Source: Patescibacteria group bacterium (GTDB taxonomy: Bacteria > Patescibacteriota > Minisyncoccia > Moranbacterales > UBA2206). From it: DNA of 64,000 bases. Shown here in pieces: positions 1 to 57,071 of the stretch; the stretch's first letter is position 1; each line of letters begins with the position of its first letter. The translations under genes and the position numbers were made by a program. A model generated the notes under the pieces. The model ran no database searches, had not been told where the DNA came from, and worked only from the letters and a program-made list of their open reading frames with translations. Location: contig JAKLFF010000001.1 of assembly GCA_022711335.1 (NCBI GenBank), positions 40,260 through 104,259 on the forward strand, written 5' to 3'.

Positions 1-755
1 AACCAGGCATTTGGTCGGCTTGCGTATCTTCGCAAATTGGCTGTCCGATGGGTTGCCAATTTTGCGCAACAGGCAAAGGCGGATTTGTGAGAAATTTAAC
101 TTCCGAAGAAATAATCGATCAGATTTTGTTTTGGAAGCAGCATCTCAAGAAAAATAAAATCAGCGGCATTTTTTCCAATATCGTTTTTATGGGAATGGGA
201 GAGCCATTTCTCAATTGGAAAGAGGTATCCAAAAGCATAAAAGATTTGACTGATCCGAAATTATTCGGTTTTGGATCAAGAAGCATATCTGTCTCAACGG
301 TTGGCATTCGGGAAGGAATTGAAAAAATAGCCAAGGAATTTCCCCAGGTGAATCTGGCCATTTCTTTGCATTTCGGAAATAACAAAAAAAGATCAGAATA
401 TATGCCAATTAACAAAGACTATGATTTAAATAACATTAAAAATTCCATTTCCTGTTATTTTCAAAAAACCAGGAGGAAGATTTTTTTGGAATATATCATG
501 CTTGCGGATATTAATGACAGTCAGAAAGACGCGGATGACTTGATTAAGTTTATAAGGTCCATAGATGATAATTATCTTTTGCATCTGAATCTTATTAAAT
601 ATAACGAAACTTCCGGAAAATTTGTTCCTTCAACCGGAACGAAAATGAATGAATTTAAAAATTATCTTGTTTCTAGAGAAATAAGCGTCACAATAAGAAA
701 AAGCCTTGGAGAAGATATCCAAGGCGCATGCGGGCAGCTGGCTGGCAAAAATTAA
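1..755 (+). CDS. rlmN: Radical-SAM rRNA/tRNA adenine-C2 methyltransferase RlmN, 5-prime truncated at window edge
   Basis: The frame stays open back to position 1. It reads PGIWSACVSSQIGCPMGCQFCATG, which is the RlmN CxxxCxxC cluster motif. The C-terminus ...DIQGACGQLAG matches the RlmN terminal motif. Confidence 0.8.
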   Translation, partial: PGIWSACVSSQIGCPMGCQFCATGKGGFVRNLTSEEIIDQILFWKQHLKKNKISGIFSNIVFMGMGEPFLNWKEVSKSIKDLTDPKLFGFGSRSISVSTVGIREGIEKIAKEFPQVNLAISLHFGNNKKRSEYMPINKDYDLNNIKNSISCYFQKTRRKIFLEYIMLADINDSQKDADDLIKFIRSIDDNYLLHLNLIKYNETSGKFVPSTGTKMNEFKNYLVSREISVTIRKSLGEDIQGACGQLAGKN

Positions 756-2422
756 ATATTTTTTACCATATAAGTATCTTCCAGTCTATATTCCAGCTTT
801 TTATAGTATCCCCGGACTCCAACACCTGAAATAACGGCGATTTTTTTTATTCCGAAATCTTGTTTGGCAATTCTTTCAGCTTCGGCAATAAGTTTCTTTC
901 CAAGTCCGATATGCTGGGGAGATTTATTGTCCTTTCTGCTTATCTCGGTCATTTTTCCATAAGTATGCACCTCGCGGATGATAGCGGAATTCCTTAATAT
1001 TGGCATATAATCATACAATTTGTCATTCCCGACTTGACCGGGAATCCAGTTTTTAATTTTTATTTGTTTGGCTAGATTCCCGCTTTCGCGAGAATGACAA
1101 ATAAAGGGAACTCTTAATCGCAACAATGCGAATAATTTTTTCTTGTCTTTTGACACGAATTGCAAAAATATTTCTTTTCCGCCTGATGCGTTATAATCAA
1201 TCCGATCGAGAATTATTTTTTCATTTATTTTATAATCCAGCTTTACTTCCCGGCATCGGATGCATTGGCAGTTTGATCTGGGAATAATCAGCTGGCGCAG
1301 ATTGGATAATTTCGGTCCAGCAATAATTGAAGTGGAGGGAACATCGCGGACCAGGCGGGAAATCCGGACGTAGGGCGGAATGATTTTGTTTTTTATTTCC
1401 AAAACCAGTTTTTCAAACTGCTTATCGCTCATCGGATTGTATTTTCCTTGTTTCCAAGCTTTGTATAAATCGCTGTTTTTCACAACAACAGTCGGATAAA
1501 TTTTGAGCATATCCGGACGAAAATCGGGATTGGAAAATAATTTTTGAAACATTTCCAAATCTCTCTTGGAATTTGATCCGGGAAGTCCGGGCATAATGTG
1601 ATAATTTATTTTGAATCCGGCGTCTTTAAGAAGTTTAGAGGCTTCTATAGTGGCTTCTACATTATGTCCGCGGCTATTAATTTTTAAAATATCATCAAAA
1701 ATATTTTGCACGCCCAGTTCAACTCTCGTGCAGCCCAAATTTCTAAAATTAATTATTTCTTTTTCCGAAATATAATCCGGCCGCGTTTCCAGTGTCAGCC
1801 CAATAATCCTATGCCTAGCCTTTTCATTTTTTCTTTGCTCGATTAGCAATAAATTTTTTGTTACATGTTTCGTGTTATATGTTTTATGTTTTGTGTATTC
1901 ATTGCAGGCGCGGAAACATTCAGTGATGAACCAGCGCTGATATTTTTTGGGAAGATAGGAAAAAGTTCCGCCCATGACGATCAATTCGATTTTGTCAGTT
2001 TTGTGCCCGTTAAGTTCGAGTGATCGAAGCCGGTTTTGCACTTGGGCGTATGGATTAAATTTTGAGAAAATGGCGCGCATAACGGCCGGTTCATTGGAAA
2101 GATAGCTTTTGGGCATTTTGGGTTCAGTCGGGCAATAAAGGCATTTTCCAGGGCAAGGAAATGGCTTTGTAAGGACGGCGACAACGGCTACCCCAGACTG
2201 AGTGCGGATGCTTCGGCTCATCATAACCTTTTCGAGATTGGCGCTTGGTTTGATTTCTTTTTTTTCTATCAGTTTGTTATAAATTTCCCGTAGATCTGCA
2301 TTAGTCGGCAGGGGAAGTCTCAACTTTTTGCAGAGGTCTTTTTTGATTTGCGAAAAATCTTCGGAATTTTTAACATTCCTTTTTATTGCTAATTTTATGA
2401 AGTTGTCATAAGCTGGATTCAT
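752..2422 (-). CDS. elp3: Elp3-like protein: N-terminal radical-SAM domain plus C-terminal GNAT acetyltransferase domain. Carries an in-frame repeat-element insertion.
   Basis: The radical-SAM motif is PFPCPGKCLYCP (CxxxxCxxC). The GNAT tail HIGLGKKLIAEAERIAKQDFGIKKIAVISGVGVRGYYKKLEY is typical of Elp3. The 556 aa ORF reads through repeat copy 1 at 1021..1099. Confidence 0.85.
   Translation of the reverse strand: MNPAYDNFIKLAIKRNVKNSEDFSQIKKDLCKKLRLPLPTNADLREIYNKLIEKKEIKPSANLEKVMMSRSIRTQSGVAVVAVLTKPFPCPGKCLYCPTEPKMPKSYLSNEPAVMRAIFSKFNPYAQVQNRLRSLELNGHKTDKIELIVMGGTFSYLPKKYQRWFITECFRACNEYTKHKTYNTKHVTKNLLLIEQRKNEKARHRIIGLTLETRPDYISEKEIINFRNLGCTRVELGVQNIFDDILKINSRGHNVEATIEASKLLKDAGFKINYHIMPGLPGSNSKRDLEMFQKLFSNPDFRPDMLKIYPTVVVKNSDLYKAWKQGKYNPMSDKQFEKLVLEIKNKIIPPYVRISRLVRDVPSTSIIAGPKLSNLRQLIIPRSNCQCIRCREVKLDYKINEKIILDRIDYNASGGKEIFLQFVSKDKKKLFALLRLRVPFICHSRESGNLAKQIKIKNWIPGQVGNDKLYDYMPILRNSAIIREVHTYGKMTEISRKDNKSPQHIGLGKKLIAEAERIAKQDFGIKKIAVISGVGVRGYYKKLEYRLEDTYMVKNI
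1021..1099. mobile_element. MITE-like double-hairpin element, copy 1, in-frame inside elp3
   Basis: The sequence is tgtcattcccgacttgaccgggaatccag, then a 28 bp AT spacer, then ctagattcccgctttcgcgagaatgaca. The ends are inverted repeats, and each arm contains its own mini-palindrome. Confidence 0.9.
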
Positions 2423-3187: not shown

Positions 3188-3270
3188 TGCCGAAGGAGAG
3201 AGTCGAACTCTCATGGGATTTCTCCCGCACGATTTTGAGTCGTGTGCGTCTGCCATTCCGCCACTTCGGC
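3188..3270 (-). tRNA. tRNA-Leu (anticodon CAA), type II with long variable arm
   Basis: The reverse complement is GCCGAAGTGGCGGAATGGCAGACGCACACGACTCAAAATCGTGCGGGAGAAATCCCATGAGAGTTCGACTCTCTCCTTCGGCA. It has a 7-bp acceptor stem and an anticodon stem CACGA/TCGTG with loop CTCAAAA. The T-loop is TTCGA and the long variable arm is CGGGAGAAATCCC. CCA is not encoded. Confidence 0.85.
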
Positions 3271-41782: not shown

Positions 41783-42655
41783 ATGACTAAAATTAAAAAA
41801 GCTATTCTTCCAGTTGCGGGTTTTGGAACCCGGTTCTTGCCGGCGACTAAAGCCCAGCCGAAAGAAATGCTTCCGGTCGTTGACAAGCCAGCTATTCAAT
41901 ATTTGGTCGAAGAAGCAGCGGCAGCTGGAATTGAAGAAATTGTTTTTGTAACCGGTCGCGGAAAAAGAGCTATTGAAGATCATTTTGACTATTCATACGA
42001 GCTTGATCATACGCTAGTTGAAAAAAATAAGCACGATTTGGTCAAAAAAGTGAGGGAAGTTGAAGATTTGGCAAAATTTTCATATGTTCGACAACCCGTT
42101 CCTCTGGGAGACGGCCATGCTGTTCTTTGCGCTCGGCATATTGTTGGAGATGAGCCTGTGCTTGTGATGTTCGGCGATAGTTTATATGACAGCGAAGTTC
42201 CCGCTGCAAAACAACTTATTGATGTATATGAAAAATATAATGATGTCGTGGTTGGTTTGTCCGAAGTAAAACCAGACGAGGTTGAAAGATTTGGCGTTAT
42301 AGACGGAATTGATATCGGAAATGGAATCTATGAGATTAAAAAATTTGTCGAGAAGCCCAAAAAAGAAGAAGCGCCAAGCAATTTAGTGGCGGTTGGAAAA
42401 TATATAATAACTCCCGAAATTTTTGAGCTGTTGTCGACAATGAAAGGCGGAAAATCGGGAGAAATAAGGCTGGCTGACGCTTTTGATCTGATGTTGCAGA
42501 AAAACAGGCCGATTTACGGAAAAAAACTGGATGGCGAATGGCTGGATACGGGCGAAAAGCTTACTTTTATCACAACAACCATAAAGCTTGGTATAAAGCA
42601 TCCTGAAATAGGAGAAAAACTAAAAAGATTTATTAAAGAACTTGATATAAAATGA
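41783..42655 (+). CDS. galU: UTP--glucose-1-phosphate uridylyltransferase
   Basis: KAILPVAGFGTRFLPATKAQPKEMLPVVDKPAIQYLVEEA. Confidence 0.85.
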   Translation: MTKIKKAILPVAGFGTRFLPATKAQPKEMLPVVDKPAIQYLVEEAAAAGIEEIVFVTGRGKRAIEDHFDYSYELDHTLVEKNKHDLVKKVREVEDLAKFSYVRQPVPLGDGHAVLCARHIVGDEPVLVMFGDSLYDSEVPAAKQLIDVYEKYNDVVVGLSEVKPDEVERFGVIDGIDIGNGIYEIKKFVEKPKKEEAPSNLVAVGKYIITPEIFELLSTMKGGKSGEIRLADAFDLMLQKNRPIYGKKLDGEWLDTGEKLTFITTTIKLGIKHPEIGEKLKRFIKELDIK

Positions 42656-43923
42656 AAATTGCCATTCAAGCGGCGGATTTGGACAGCCAGCGGATTGATG
42701 GAACGCGGGTTTATATTTTGAATGTTCTAAAATACTTTGGAAAGCTCGATGAATCCAGTGATTTTTTGGTTTATCATAAAAAGAATTTCAATTCGGAACT
42801 CGAGCCGCCGGAATTTCCAAACTACAAAATAATTCAAAAAAATTCAGCTTGTATCTGGACGCAGACCAGATTTGCCTGGGAAATTTGGAAAGACAAGCCG
42901 GATGTCCTCTGGATGCCGATGCAGGCGCTTCCAATTATACGAAGGAAAAATCTTAAAACCGTGATAACTGTCCACGATCTGGCTTTCAAAATTTTTCCGA
43001 ATCAATTTACAAGAAATGATTTAAGGCGACTAAATTTTTATGCCGATTACGCTATAAAAAATTCTTCAAAAATAATCGCTGTTTCGGAGTCGACAAAAAA
43101 AGATATTTTAAAGTTTTATCCTGAAATAAAAGAAGATAAAATCAAAGTTATTTATCATGGGTTCGATGAAGGAGTTTTTGGTAAAAGATATGATAATAGT
43201 GAGATACTGGATATTTTGGAGAAATATAATATTATCAATAAAGTTCAAAGTTCAAAGTTCAAAGTTCAAAGCTACAGTTCAAAACTAAAAGTTACTTTTA
43301 AATACCTGCTATATGTCGGAGCTTTACAGCCAAGGAAAAATTTGATTTTATTGGTTAAGGCATTCGAAAGACTAAAAGAAAAATATTGTCATTCCGGCCA
43401 ACGAGCCGGAATCCAGTCTGGAAACAAAGATAATGCACTAGATTCCCGCTTTCGCGGGAATGACAAAAACGCCGGTGATTTTAGCAATTTGAAATTAGTT
43501 TTGGTTGGGAAACCAGCCTGGATGGCGGAAGAAATTTTAGAAAGAATAAAAAAATCAGAATTTGCAAACGATATAATTTTAGCCGGCCAAGTTGGCTTTG
43601 GTGATCTTGGTAAAATTTATCAAGGCGCCAGCGCTTTTGTGTTTCCCTCGCTTTATGAAGGCTTCGGGATTCCGATTTTGGAAGCTTTTGCGTCGGGAGT
43701 GTCGGTGATTTGCGCCAACAATTCTTCTCTTCCGGAAGTAGCCGGAGAAGCGGCGCTTTATTTCAAAAATAATAATCCTCAAGATTTAGCCATACAAATT
43801 GAAAAAATATTATTAAGCGAAGAATTTAAAAAAGACCTTGTTTCAAAAGGCCTCTTGCAGCTTCGAAAATTTTCTTGGGAAAAATGCGCCCGGGAAACTT
43901 TAAGTTATCTCAAATCAGGCTAA
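42652..43923 (+). CDS. Family-4 (GT-B) glycosyltransferase carrying a 7-bp tandem repeat and an in-frame MITE-like insertion in the interdomain region
   Basis: The C-terminal GT4 core is LLYVGALQPRKNL...FVFPSLYEGFGIPILEAFASGVSVICAN. Confidence 0.75.
   Translation: MKIAIQAADLDSQRIDGTRVYILNVLKYFGKLDESSDFLVYHKKNFNSELEPPEFPNYKIIQKNSACIWTQTRFAWEIWKDKPDVLWMPMQALPIIRRKNLKTVITVHDLAFKIFPNQFTRNDLRRLNFYADYAIKNSSKIIAVSESTKKDILKFYPEIKEDKIKVIYHGFDEGVFGKRYDNSEILDILEKYNIINKVQSSKFKVQSYSSKLKVTFKYLLYVGALQPRKNLILLVKAFERLKEKYCHSGQRAGIQSGNKDNALDSRFRGNDKNAGDFSNLKLVLVGKPAWMAEEILERIKKSEFANDIILAGQVGFGDLGKIYQGASAFVFPSLYEGFGIPILEAFASGVSVICANNSSLPEVAGEAALYFKNNNPQDLAIQIEKILLSEEFKKDLVSKGLLQLRKFSWEKCARETLSYLKSG
43241..43271 (+). 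repeat. Heptanucleotide tandem repeat (AAGTTCA)x4.4 inside the GT4 coding sequence
   Basis: aagttca aagttca aagttca aagttca aag. It translates as KVQSSKFKVQS. Confidence 0.85.
43387..43465. mobile_element. MITE-like double-hairpin element, copy 3, in-frame inside the GT4 gene
   Basis: tgtcattccggccaacgagccggaatccag, a spacer, then ctagattcccgctttcgcgggaatgaca. The encoded peptide is CHSGQRAGIQSGNKDNALDSRFRGNDK. Confidence 0.9.
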
Positions 43924-55472: not shown

Positions 55473-57071
55473 ATGAATTTTTCTAATAATATGCCCGCCA
55501 AAGGCGAGTCCGCCTTTGGCGGAAAAATCTCTATATCATATCCGCCGTTAGAATCAAAAAAAGGCATTGCTTGCCTGGCGCAAAACCGCCAGTTCCAGTG
55601 GTTCAGCCATCCGACTTACATCTATCCGGTTATTCCGGCTTATGCAGCCTCGTTTCTCAAGGCCAATGGATATGATGTTTTGTGGGATGATGCGATCGCG
55701 GAAGAATTGAATTATGAACAGTGGAAAGAAAGAATAGTCCGGGAAAAACCGGATATTATTGCGATTGAAACAAAGACACCGGTAGTGAAAATGCATTGGA
55801 AAATTATTGATGAAATAAAAAGAGAATTGCCTGATTCCAAGGTGGTATTGATGGGAGATCATGTGACGGCGCTGCCCAAAGAATCTTTGGAAAATTCCAA
55901 AGTTGATTATGTGATCGCCAGCGGGGATTATGATTTTGCGCTTTTAAATCTAGCCAATCATCTGTCAAAAGGCGAAGCGCTGGAGGGGGGCTTTTGGTAT
56001 CGGAAAAATTGTCATTCTCGCGAAAGCGGGAATCTAGAGGCAGGCAGTAAAGACTGGATCTCCGCTTTCGCGGGGATGACAGAAAAAGAATATAAAGAAT
56101 CAGAAATAACCACCACTGGGCCGGCAGATATTTCAAAAAATAATTTAGATACTCTGCCGCTTATCGACAGAAAGCTCACGAAGTGGAAAATGTATGGATA
56201 TAAAAATGGAAATTTCAAATATACGCCTGGCGCTTACATGATGAGCGGGCGCGATTGCTGGTGGGGAAAATGCACTTTCTGTTCCTGGACAACTATGTTT
56301 CCGGGAGAGAAATTTCGAACGATGTCGGCTGAAAAAGCGCTCAGCGAAGTGGAAAATCTGATTAAACTGGGTGTTAGAGAAATTATGGAAGATAGCGGTT
56401 CGCTTCCGGTTGGGCAGTGGCTCAAAGATTTTTGCCGTGGAATGATAGAACGGGGATATAACAAAAAAATAACGATGAGCTGCAATATGAGGATTACCGG
56501 CATAAAAGATCTTGAAACATGGGAGCTTATGAAAAAAGCCGGCTTCCGGTTTATTCTTTTCGGACTGGAATCAGCCAATCAGGAAACGCTTGACCGAGTT
56601 TGCAAAAATCTCGAGGTTTCAGAAATTGAACCAGGTCTCAAACTGTGTAAAGAAGGCGGGCTCGAACCTCATATCACTGCTATGATCGGCTACCCGTGGG
56701 AAACAAAGGAAATGGCTCAAAAAACGATAAGCTTGGCGAAAAAATTGTTCAAATGCGGATATGTAGACACGCTTCAGGGAACAATCGTGATTCCTTATCC
56801 GGGAACGCCTTTATATAAATACTGCGCTGAAAACAATTTGCTTCTAACCAAAAATTACGAAGATTATGATCAGCGCCAGATGGTTATGAAATCGCCACTG
56901 GCTTCCGAAGATGCCAAAGGACTGGTGCAGGGACTGTATAAGTCTTTTATGAGCCCCCAGTTTATCTGGCGAAAAATAAAATCCATAAGAAATATGGATG
57001 ATATAAAATTCTTTTTTATGGCTGGCTGGAAATGGATGGGGAAGATGATGGATTTTGGAAACAAAAAATAG
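55473..57071 (+). CDS. B12-binding-domain radical-SAM protein with in-frame MITE-like insertion
   Basis: It has an N-terminal B12-binding-like domain. The radical-SAM cluster motif is RDCWWGKCTFCSW. The ORF reads through repeat copy 4. Confidence 0.8.
   Translation: MNFSNNMPAKGESAFGGKISISYPPLESKKGIACLAQNRQFQWFSHPTYIYPVIPAYAASFLKANGYDVLWDDAIAEELNYEQWKERIVREKPDIIAIETKTPVVKMHWKIIDEIKRELPDSKVVLMGDHVTALPKESLENSKVDYVIASGDYDFALLNLANHLSKGEALEGGFWYRKNCHSRESGNLEAGSKDWISAFAGMTEKEYKESEITTTGPADISKNNLDTLPLIDRKLTKWKMYGYKNGNFKYTPGAYMMSGRDCWWGKCTFCSWTTMFPGEKFRTMSAEKALSEVENLIKLGVREIMEDSGSLPVGQWLKDFCRGMIERGYNKKITMSCNMRITGIKDLETWELMKKAGFRFILFGLESANQETLDRVCKNLEVSEIEPGLKLCKEGGLEPHITAMIGYPWETKEMAQKTISLAKKLFKCGYVDTLQGTIVIPYPGTPLYKYCAENNLLLTKNYEDYDQRQMVMKSPLASEDAKGLVQGLYKSFMSPQFIWRKIKSIRNMDDIKFFFMAGWKWMGKMMDFGNKK
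56010..56081. mobile_element. MITE-like double-hairpin element, copy 4, in-frame inside the radical-SAM gene
   Basis: tgtcattctcgcgaaagcgggaatctag, a spacer, then ctggatctccgctttcgcggggatgaca. The encoded peptide is CHSRESGNLEAGSKDWISAFAGMT. Confidence 0.9.

Follow-up and report, generated by a model that had tools for sequence, protein, structure and literature searches.

Our analysis of the letters, a predicted protein structure and the orthologues of a 64,000-nt stretch of Patescibacteria DNA (the whole of which we call the window) makes it highly probable that the element at 43387-43465 is a head-to-head dimer of CGTC/TGTC-tagged REP hairpins (CGTC-1/CGTC-2, dRS3/NTS, RPE-6, SRM), and that this repeat, selfish and non-autonomous, has been retained in a GT4 glycosyltransferase gene as a translated passenger. 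The original prediction had treated the element as novel, whereas the family to which we assign it, on the strength of sequence, has already been described under the names CGTC REP, NTS/SRM and RPE-6, and within this family the element is a CGTC-2/CGTC-1 head-to-head heterodimer. What is new is the host, a tiny, uncultured member of the Patescibacteria (CPR), together with the finding that 3/5 of the local copies are intragenic and that insertions in the same loop of the GT4 protein appear to have arisen independently in three clades.

The element, which we number copy 3, runs as TGTCATTCC...GGAATGACA over exactly 43387-43465 and measures 79 nt, or 81 nt if the flanking T/A is counted. It is laid out as TGTCATTCCGGCCAACGAGCCGGAATCCAG, then a 21-nt spacer, then CTAGATTCCCGCTTTCGCGGGAATGACA, and it adds 27 codons in frame, such that the host protein reads ...KEKY-CHSGQRAGIQSGNKDNALDSRFRGND-KNAG.... 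Its parts are as follows:

43387-43465, plus strand: copy 3, an SRM doublet, i.e. a head-to-head dimer of CGTC/TGTC-tagged REP hairpins, in frame in the GT4 gene
43387-43416, plus strand: left arm, with a TGTC tag, an 8-bp stem (ATTCCGGC/GCCGGAAT), a 6-nt loop and the tail CCAG
43417-43437, plus strand: spacer, variable and A/T-rich
43438-43465, minus strand: right arm, reading TGTCATTCCCGCGAAAGCGGGAATCTAG, of CGTC-1 type with an 8-bp stem and a 4-nt loop

The left arm encodes CHSGQRAGIQ and the right arm, read on the plus strand, LDSRFRGND; stop-codon content varies between copies only in the spacer. As single-stranded DNA copy 3 forms a pair of hairpins, each folding on its own (-18 kcal/mol, z = -4.2 against shuffles), the right-arm hairpin being ATTCCCGC-TTTC-GCGGGAAT followed by a CTAG/CCAG tail, and the left-arm hairpin of copy 2 takes the form ATTCCGGG-CTTGA-CCCGGAAT. 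Moreover, the left-arm stems of copies 1-3 covary (CCCGA/CGGG, CCGGG/CCCGG and CCGGC/GCCGG), all eight arms of the four window copies begin with TGTC, and their stems, loops and tails are those by which CGTC REPs and SRMs are defined, with a 6-nt loop in the left arm of copy 3. A search of the window against Rfam at the gathering threshold returned a tRNA as its sole match and nothing at copy 3. A tRNA gene is found at window 3188-3270 on the minus strand.

Previous work on CGTC REPs noted that the tag is often TGTC, that the stems are of 8-9 bp and start with AT, that loops are 4 nt in family 1 and 5 nt in families 2-4 and are accompanied by a CCA-like tail, and that the units mostly occur as head-to-head homo- or heterodimers with 20-100 bp spacers; in the same study CGTC-1 is equated with dRS3 and with R. 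conorii RPE-6, and intragenic dimers encoding 20-30 aa are tabulated for R. conorii, Sphingomonas and Erythrobacter (Di Nocera, De Gregorio & Rocco 2013, BMC Genomics 14:522). Its supplementary table lists the peptides CHSRESGNP, DSRFRGND, SFPRKRES...DSRFRGND, VIPAKAGI and WIPAFAGMT, and it was in this table only that we met them, a full-text literature search for SFPRKRES, VIPAKAGI, RFRGND and others having given no match. The window elements share with the CGTC REPs the TGTC variant of the tag, the 8-bp stem starting with AT, the loops, the tail, the dimeric arrangement and the CHSRESGNP, DSRFRGND, SFPRKRES and VIPAKAGI peptides, but they differ in a host that lies outside the five phyla listed in 2013 (Patescibacteria/CPR), in the 6-nt loop and in the high intragenic share.

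A second line of identification comes through the Neisseria NTS (CGTCATTCCCGCGMAVGCGGGAATCYRG), an extended form of dRS3 that has been generalised to Ssn-related motifs (SRM) in many phyla (Chenal et al. 2025, Nat Commun 16:2388). The right arm of copy 3, read on the minus strand, matches the NTS consensus with one mismatch (43438-43465), as does the stretch at 2485-2512. Used as a regular expression, the published degenerate SRM motif picks out six window arms, compared with 0.1 on average in shuffled sequence, and passes over the left arms of copies 2 and 3; GTCATTCC occurs six times in the window against 1.5 expected. Like the NTS/SRM the right arm has a wide cross-phylum distribution: its exact 25-mer (GATTCCCGCTTTCGCGGGAATGACA) is present in at least 119 GTDB species, which represent more than 15 phyla (species representatives, L041-L159), and the hosts among the matches listed include Bacteroidota, Alpha-, Beta-, Gamma- and Deltaproteobacteria, Chloroflexota, Planctomycetota, Omnitrophota, Ignavibacteria, Acidobacteriota, several Patescibacteria and a Rickettsia endosymbiont. 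Such conservation across phyla is striking for a non-coding repeat and, as far as sequence matches can speak to it, would imply that the protein partner is very constrained or else that horizontal spread is frequent. The same two-hairpin dimer architecture, with variable stems, is also seen in viral and metagenome contigs. In locus L216 (1224-1662) five near-identical dimers form a tandem array at 90-nt spacing, and repeated dimer units are found in L073 (117-434, Candidatus Omnitrophus magneticus); such arrays yield long spurious open frames made of repeat peptide alone. The window differs from the described NTS in two respects, namely that NTS are rarely intragenic (2% in N. meningitidis 8013) against 3/5 copies here, and that the window organism has no ssnA within 84 kb. 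In-frame coding copies, RPEs and CPR are not discussed by Chenal et al. 2025.

A behavioural parallel is with the Rickettsia palindromic elements (RPEs), which are in-frame palindromic repeats found at solvent-exposed sites of unrelated housekeeping genes (Ogata et al. 2000, 2002). RPE-6 and RPE-4 resemble the window element in being in-frame palindromes at exposed sites, in sharing an ATGAC motif and in raising the same question of hotspot or common origin at a shared locus, whereas they differ in host and lifestyle, RPE-1 to RPE-3 are longer and unrelated, and RPEs are by name elements of Rickettsia. We therefore do not call the window element an RPE proper, its host being a Moranbacteria-like member of the Patescibacteria, and note only that it behaves like RPE-6.

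Besides copy 3 the window holds three further copies:

1021-1099, minus strand: copy 1, 79 nt, in frame in an ELP3-like radical-SAM/KAT gene (752..2422, minus strand)
2435-2512, no strand assigned: copy 2, 78 nt, intergenic, between the start of the ELP3-like gene and a methyltransferase gene
56010-56081, plus strand: copy 4, 72 nt (24 codons), a partly decayed CGTC-1 homodimer

On the minus strand copy 1 encodes CHSRESGNLAKQIKIKNWIPGQVGND, with the element in the opposite orientation to that of copy 3 and an identical CHS entry phase. When the ELP3-like protein was compared with an archaeal Elp3 structure (PDB ID 6IAD) the alignment broke at query residues 444-478, which face 7 residues of the structure. 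Copy 4, detected with a profile built from copies 1-3, is in frame in a B12-binding radical-SAM gene (55473..57071), where it encodes CHSRESGNLEAGSKDWISAFAGMT in a linker flanked by the B12 domain (aa 56-152) on one side and the radical-SAM domain (aa 260-421) on the other. A fifth copy, decayed and intergenic, lies just outside the window (L282 19582-19682), which brings the count to five head-to-head dimers in 84 kb (the window and 10 kb on each side). Of these three are intragenic, compared with about 4/72 dimers in other low-GC loci and 1-2/26 arms in other CPR loci; this local excess comes from a small sample and may reflect how densely CPR genomes are packed with genes. Copies 3 and 4 are situated in a polysaccharide-synthesis cluster. 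Near the ELP3-like gene lies dprA, which encodes a natural-transformation DNA-processing protein (L282 1913-3010, ~7 kb into the window) and would be relevant only if the repeats act on incoming single-stranded DNA, as NTS do in Neisseria.

How such repeats move bears on whether they could instead be classical MITEs, that is, deletion derivatives of an insertion sequence that have terminal inverted repeats and depend on a DDE transposase for their movement. A MITE would be expected to be small, to occur in several copies and to end in terminal inverted repeats, as is the case here (TTGTCATTCC/GGAATGACAA). However, in a census of 187 non-redundant dimers drawn from the window and all fetched loci, a sample of genomes and metagenomes, we found no target-site duplication (2-nt sharing occurred at 8/187 against 13.6 expected, and sharing of at least 4 nt never exceeded chance) and saw no parent insertion sequence. 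Each supposed terminal repeat is, moreover, a self-contained hairpin that is also found singly, and the arms fit the SRM/CGTC REP definition, such that a MITE is in our judgement most improbable. The base that precedes the tag is a pyrimidine at 78% of ends and the upstream flanks are G-poor. The lack of target duplication fits a route through single-stranded DNA or hairpins and not DDE cut-and-paste. RAYT is thought to handle the hairpins of REPINs (doublets of GTAG REPs) in trans, and the dimers resemble REPINs in having an inverted hairpin doublet as their unit, in leaving no target duplication and in their presumed mobilisation in trans via single-stranded DNA. They differ in the tag (GTAG against CGTC/TGTC) and in the presumed partner, the RAYT HUH tyrosine transposase in the one case and a GIY-YIG nuclease in the other; an identity with REPINs or GTAG REPs was rejected on the TGTC tag of the window elements.

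By analogy with these systems, the selfish repeat that we favour might spread as single-stranded hairpins on which an SsnA-type GIY-YIG nuclease acts in trans, the gene for this nuclease lying elsewhere in the genome or in the community, a suggestion that we put forward tentatively and at somewhat less than even chances. SsnA is a 94-aa GIY-YIG protein that binds and cuts NTS as single-stranded DNA only, and the evidence presented for it covers single-stranded DNA binding, cleavage and an effect on transformation, transposition not being among them, while a single-stranded DNA or hairpin route is hinted at for NTS-ssnA-NTS (Chenal et al. 2025, Nat Commun 16:2388). In four of the fetched loci (L059, L060, L085 and L150) SsnA-like ORFs adjoin the motifs, and a profile built from these four ORFs detected no SsnA homologue (cd10448 GIY-YIG) in the window and 10 kb on each side (84 kb).

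We next consider the host protein, in which the following features bear on the location of the insert:

42652-43923, plus strand: host gene, encoding a GT4 (GT-B fold) glycosyltransferase of 423 aa in which the insert forms residues 248-274
Residues 218-222: modelled strand YLLYV, which opens the C-terminal Rossmann domain
Residues 231-249: modelled helix that precedes the insert
Residues 248-274: insert, pLDDT below 50, with a confident helix and strand on either side
Residues 281-285: modelled strand LVLVG, the second strand of the C-terminal domain, after the insert

Pfam assigns Glyco_transf_4 to aa 16-172 and Glycos_transf_1 to aa 210-399 of this protein, and its AlphaFold2 model (mean pLDDT 84.7) is closest in fold to MshA, GlgM and BshA. 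According to the model the insertion site lies at the surface, in a disordered loop that joins the first helix of the C-terminal Rossmann domain to its second strand. It had been proposed that the insert occupies an interdomain loop and that LVLVG is the strand with which the C-terminal domain opens; neither proposal agrees with the model or with the Pfam boundary at residue 210, since the C-terminal domain begins upstream of the insert, which thus falls outside the interdomain linker, and it is YLLYV that opens the domain, with LVLVG second. The true linker corresponds to residues 198-213 and is likewise of low confidence (pLDDT below 50). The linker DNA contains, at window 43240-43283, a perfect (AAAGTTC)x4 and degenerate units of this 7-nt tandem repeat, and the closest GT4 orthologue has three fewer units (21 nt, in frame). 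From its sequence, slippage of the repeat could shift the frame and lead to phase variation of a glycan-synthesis enzyme; no length variants of the 7-nt repeat were seen in L002-L004. Similar to the sites described for RPEs, the in-frame insertions in the window lie at surface-exposed positions, namely the GT4 loop, the gap in the ELP3-like protein relative to 6IAD and the radical-SAM linker.

Comparison with orthologues, together with the coordinates, the open reading frame and Pfam, bears out the earlier reading of 43387-43465 as a copy of a repeated element that lies in frame in a GT4 gene. The orthologues come from Moranbacteria-like Patescibacteria and are mostly of 370-374 aa. The closest of them (L001/P0002, 79.5% nt identity) lacks the element, its site reading ...CTGAAGGAAAATAAAAATAATAGTGATTTAAAATTAGTT..., and the element is missing from nearly all of 120 orthologues. 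In an alignment of 23 sequences such extra residues at this place were found only in the window protein, in P0001 (a 99%-identical variant), in P0012 and in P0050. When an 89-aa GT4 fragment that includes the insert was searched by protein words, one candidate and zero hits resulted, and an exhaustive phmmer comparison of a 69-aa fragment with 1.8 billion representatives gave only three weak hits, such that the set of carriers stays within the 120 orthologues. Repeats are able to cause misjoins in metagenome assemblies, and a chimeric join at the repeat during assembly or binning was accordingly weighed; we give it a practically negligible probability, as the insert-bearing ORFs are intact in data from different assemblers and samples (JGI, ENA, Logan), the reading frame is kept and homology to GT4 is seen on either side of the insert. 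Nine contigs from different samples encode the identical GT4 protein, at least 23 contigs from different assemblies encode the insert-bearing ELP3-like protein, and the recurrence of the same insert-bearing alleles across many contigs indicates that the insert is real and stable.

P0050 and P0012 have dimers of their own in the same GT4 loop. That of P0050 measures 73 nt and differs from the window copy in left stem and spacer, while that of P0012 has its left hairpin extended, shows a CTGC loop and is longer overall. In each of the two the CGTC-1 arm lies at the 3' side, and the translation runs CHS/CYS...DSRF/LRGND. A neighbour-joining tree places the three carriers in separate clades, and insert-free sisters accompany each of them (P0002, P0093 and P0118). 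As judged from these sequences, three independent gains in the same loop, phase and orientation would be the simpler reading. The puzzle of hotspot or ancestry at shared loci has been raised earlier for Rickettsia RPE-4/6/7 and Xanthomonas recB, and one may ask whether the insert is ancestral to the GT4 family and was precisely lost in most lineages. The identical loop, phase and orientation in the window, P0050 and P0012 would accord with this, and the R. japonica authors preferred a common origin for RPE-4/6/7 at shared loci, yet the carriers are separated by their insert-free sisters, their elements differ in length (79 nt, 73 nt and the longer variant), in left-arm stem and in spacer, and the insertion points lie several codons apart. 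Furthermore, the stems are perfect and the right arm is the pan-bacterial 25-mer in the window and P0050 (P0012 differs only in the loop), yet the host proteins are only 53-62% identical. We therefore regard an ancestral insert as very unlikely and retain separate gains as the preferred account. Short inserts unrelated to the element are present at the interdomain linker of further GT4 orthologues (P0003, NQKSKINPPAGEAGNQNDN; P0025/26/93, GGPASGWQT; alignment columns ~187-240), and P0050 has such an insert, LSLPSLILPSGRGGGL, slightly upstream of these. All of these inserts look like translations of other small palindromic repeats.

It had further been claimed that frames are kept open by selection only where the element sits inside genes, and that the genic copies share a reading phase. 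The second observation stands for the window, where the CHS phase (TGT-CAT-TCx) is common to all three genic copies, in the GT4, ELP3-like and B12-binding radical-SAM genes. As a rule for the family it does not hold: verified intragenic dimers elsewhere, such as those of MiaA (VIPAKAGIQ...TPGMT), ThiD (SFPRKRESS...DSRFRGND), UvrD (RHSREGGNP...DSRFRGND) and a TPR-containing membrane protein (SFPRKWES...DSRFRGND), use all three entry phases, in agreement with the intragenic CGTC table of 2013. For the first claim we took as an intergenic set the 161/187 dimers that lie outside long open frames, coding calls in high-GC loci being accepted only if Pfam confirmed the host protein. One phase of three is always closed by a TGA inside GGAATGACA, and which phase this is depends on the length modulo 3. 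The remaining two, permitted phases are open in 54-70% of the 161 intergenic dimers per strand, a result that weakens the case for a restriction of open frames to genes, and at least one open frame is present in 97% of these dimers (composition-matched shuffles are open in 32% per frame). The CHS phase itself is open on at least one strand in 51/57 dimers with a length modulo 3 of 0 and in 42/47 of those with 1, a total of 93/104. Openness between genes is thus roughly the neutral expectation given stop-free arms and a spacer of ~8 codons, and the only selection needed would be the loss of insertions that break genes.

The contrast that had been drawn with intergenic copy 2 survives in part. 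Copy 2 indeed has a TAA in phase 0 of the plus strand, but its CHS phase is open on the other strand, where phase 0 reads CHSRESGNPVKLTNLSTRFRVKPGMT in the orientation used in the ELP3-like gene; the intergenic fifth copy is open in phase 0 of the plus strand. With both copies open, openness of the CHS phase is not peculiar to genic copies. Among lengths, the class with a remainder of 2 modulo 3 makes up 57/161 intergenic dimers (35%) against 0 of about 10 verified intragenic ones; this gap is not due to stops, as two phases are open in that class, and it may be a clue to the true boundaries of the inserted unit.

We can then ask how the dimer came to persist in the GT4 gene. In the mechanism that we propose, the repeat would have entered the coding sequence after the split from the closest insert-free relative, and would have been tolerated through a combination of G+C-rich arms that are stop-free in two of three phases, a net insertion of 27 codons that preserves the frame, a polar encoded peptide, and a location in a disordered surface loop of the C-terminal domain, distant from the catalytic EX7E region. 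The insert is probably neutral or nearly so for the enzyme. A contrary possibility is that the copies are kept for a function, be it as SsnA-dependent DNA marks that modulate recombination or transformation of a surface-glycan cluster, as RNA hairpins or as a selected peptide loop. In N. meningitidis the NTS are clustered around genes for surface proteins and have an effect on transformation (Chenal et al. 2025, Nat Commun 16:2388), and a role of this kind could be read into the position of copies 3 and 4 in a polysaccharide-synthesis cluster with dprA nearby, and into the repeated use of one GT4 loop. The polar ..RGND exit frame, used by 8/10 verified intragenic dimers, points the same way but is not significant (one-sided p about 0.055). 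Against a function stand the lack of a local SsnA gene (84 kb), the predicted disorder of the peptide, and the fact that the hosts of intragenic copies are unrelated proteins with no significant bias of phase or exit, and we consider it decidedly improbable. The recurrence of loop, phase and orientation in three GT4 clades could nevertheless point to something beyond passive filtering. We are slightly less reserved about a bolder proposal, which we nonetheless think unlikely, that in CPR one loop of this GT4 family is a directed target of SRM/CGTC dimers, or a place where they are positively retained, having been gained there three times independently in the same phase and orientation, and that the dimers are unusually often intragenic. 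If true, this would mean that the insertion machinery has a structure-specific target within the gene, or else that the polar loop or the DNA hairpins are selected for some role, such as SsnA-dependent recombination control in the glycan-synthesis clusters of gene-dense genomes with natural competence. The neutral passenger remains our preferred account.

These observations join the literatures on Rickettsia RPEs, on CGTC REPs and on NTS/SRM and SsnA, which have developed mostly without mutual citation, and extend them to the Candidate Phyla Radiation. They also carry a warning for annotation: where CPR proteins contain the stretches CHSRESGNP, DSRFRGND, SFPRKRES and VIPAKAGI, these derive from repeats. 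The ability of such repeats to code is a consequence of their arm sequence, and this provides a null model for claims of selection on translated repeats. Finally, the recurrent insertions in the GT4 loop offer a small and testable case for deciding between hotspot and common origin as posed for RPEs, and it is this point that we consider most worth pursuing.
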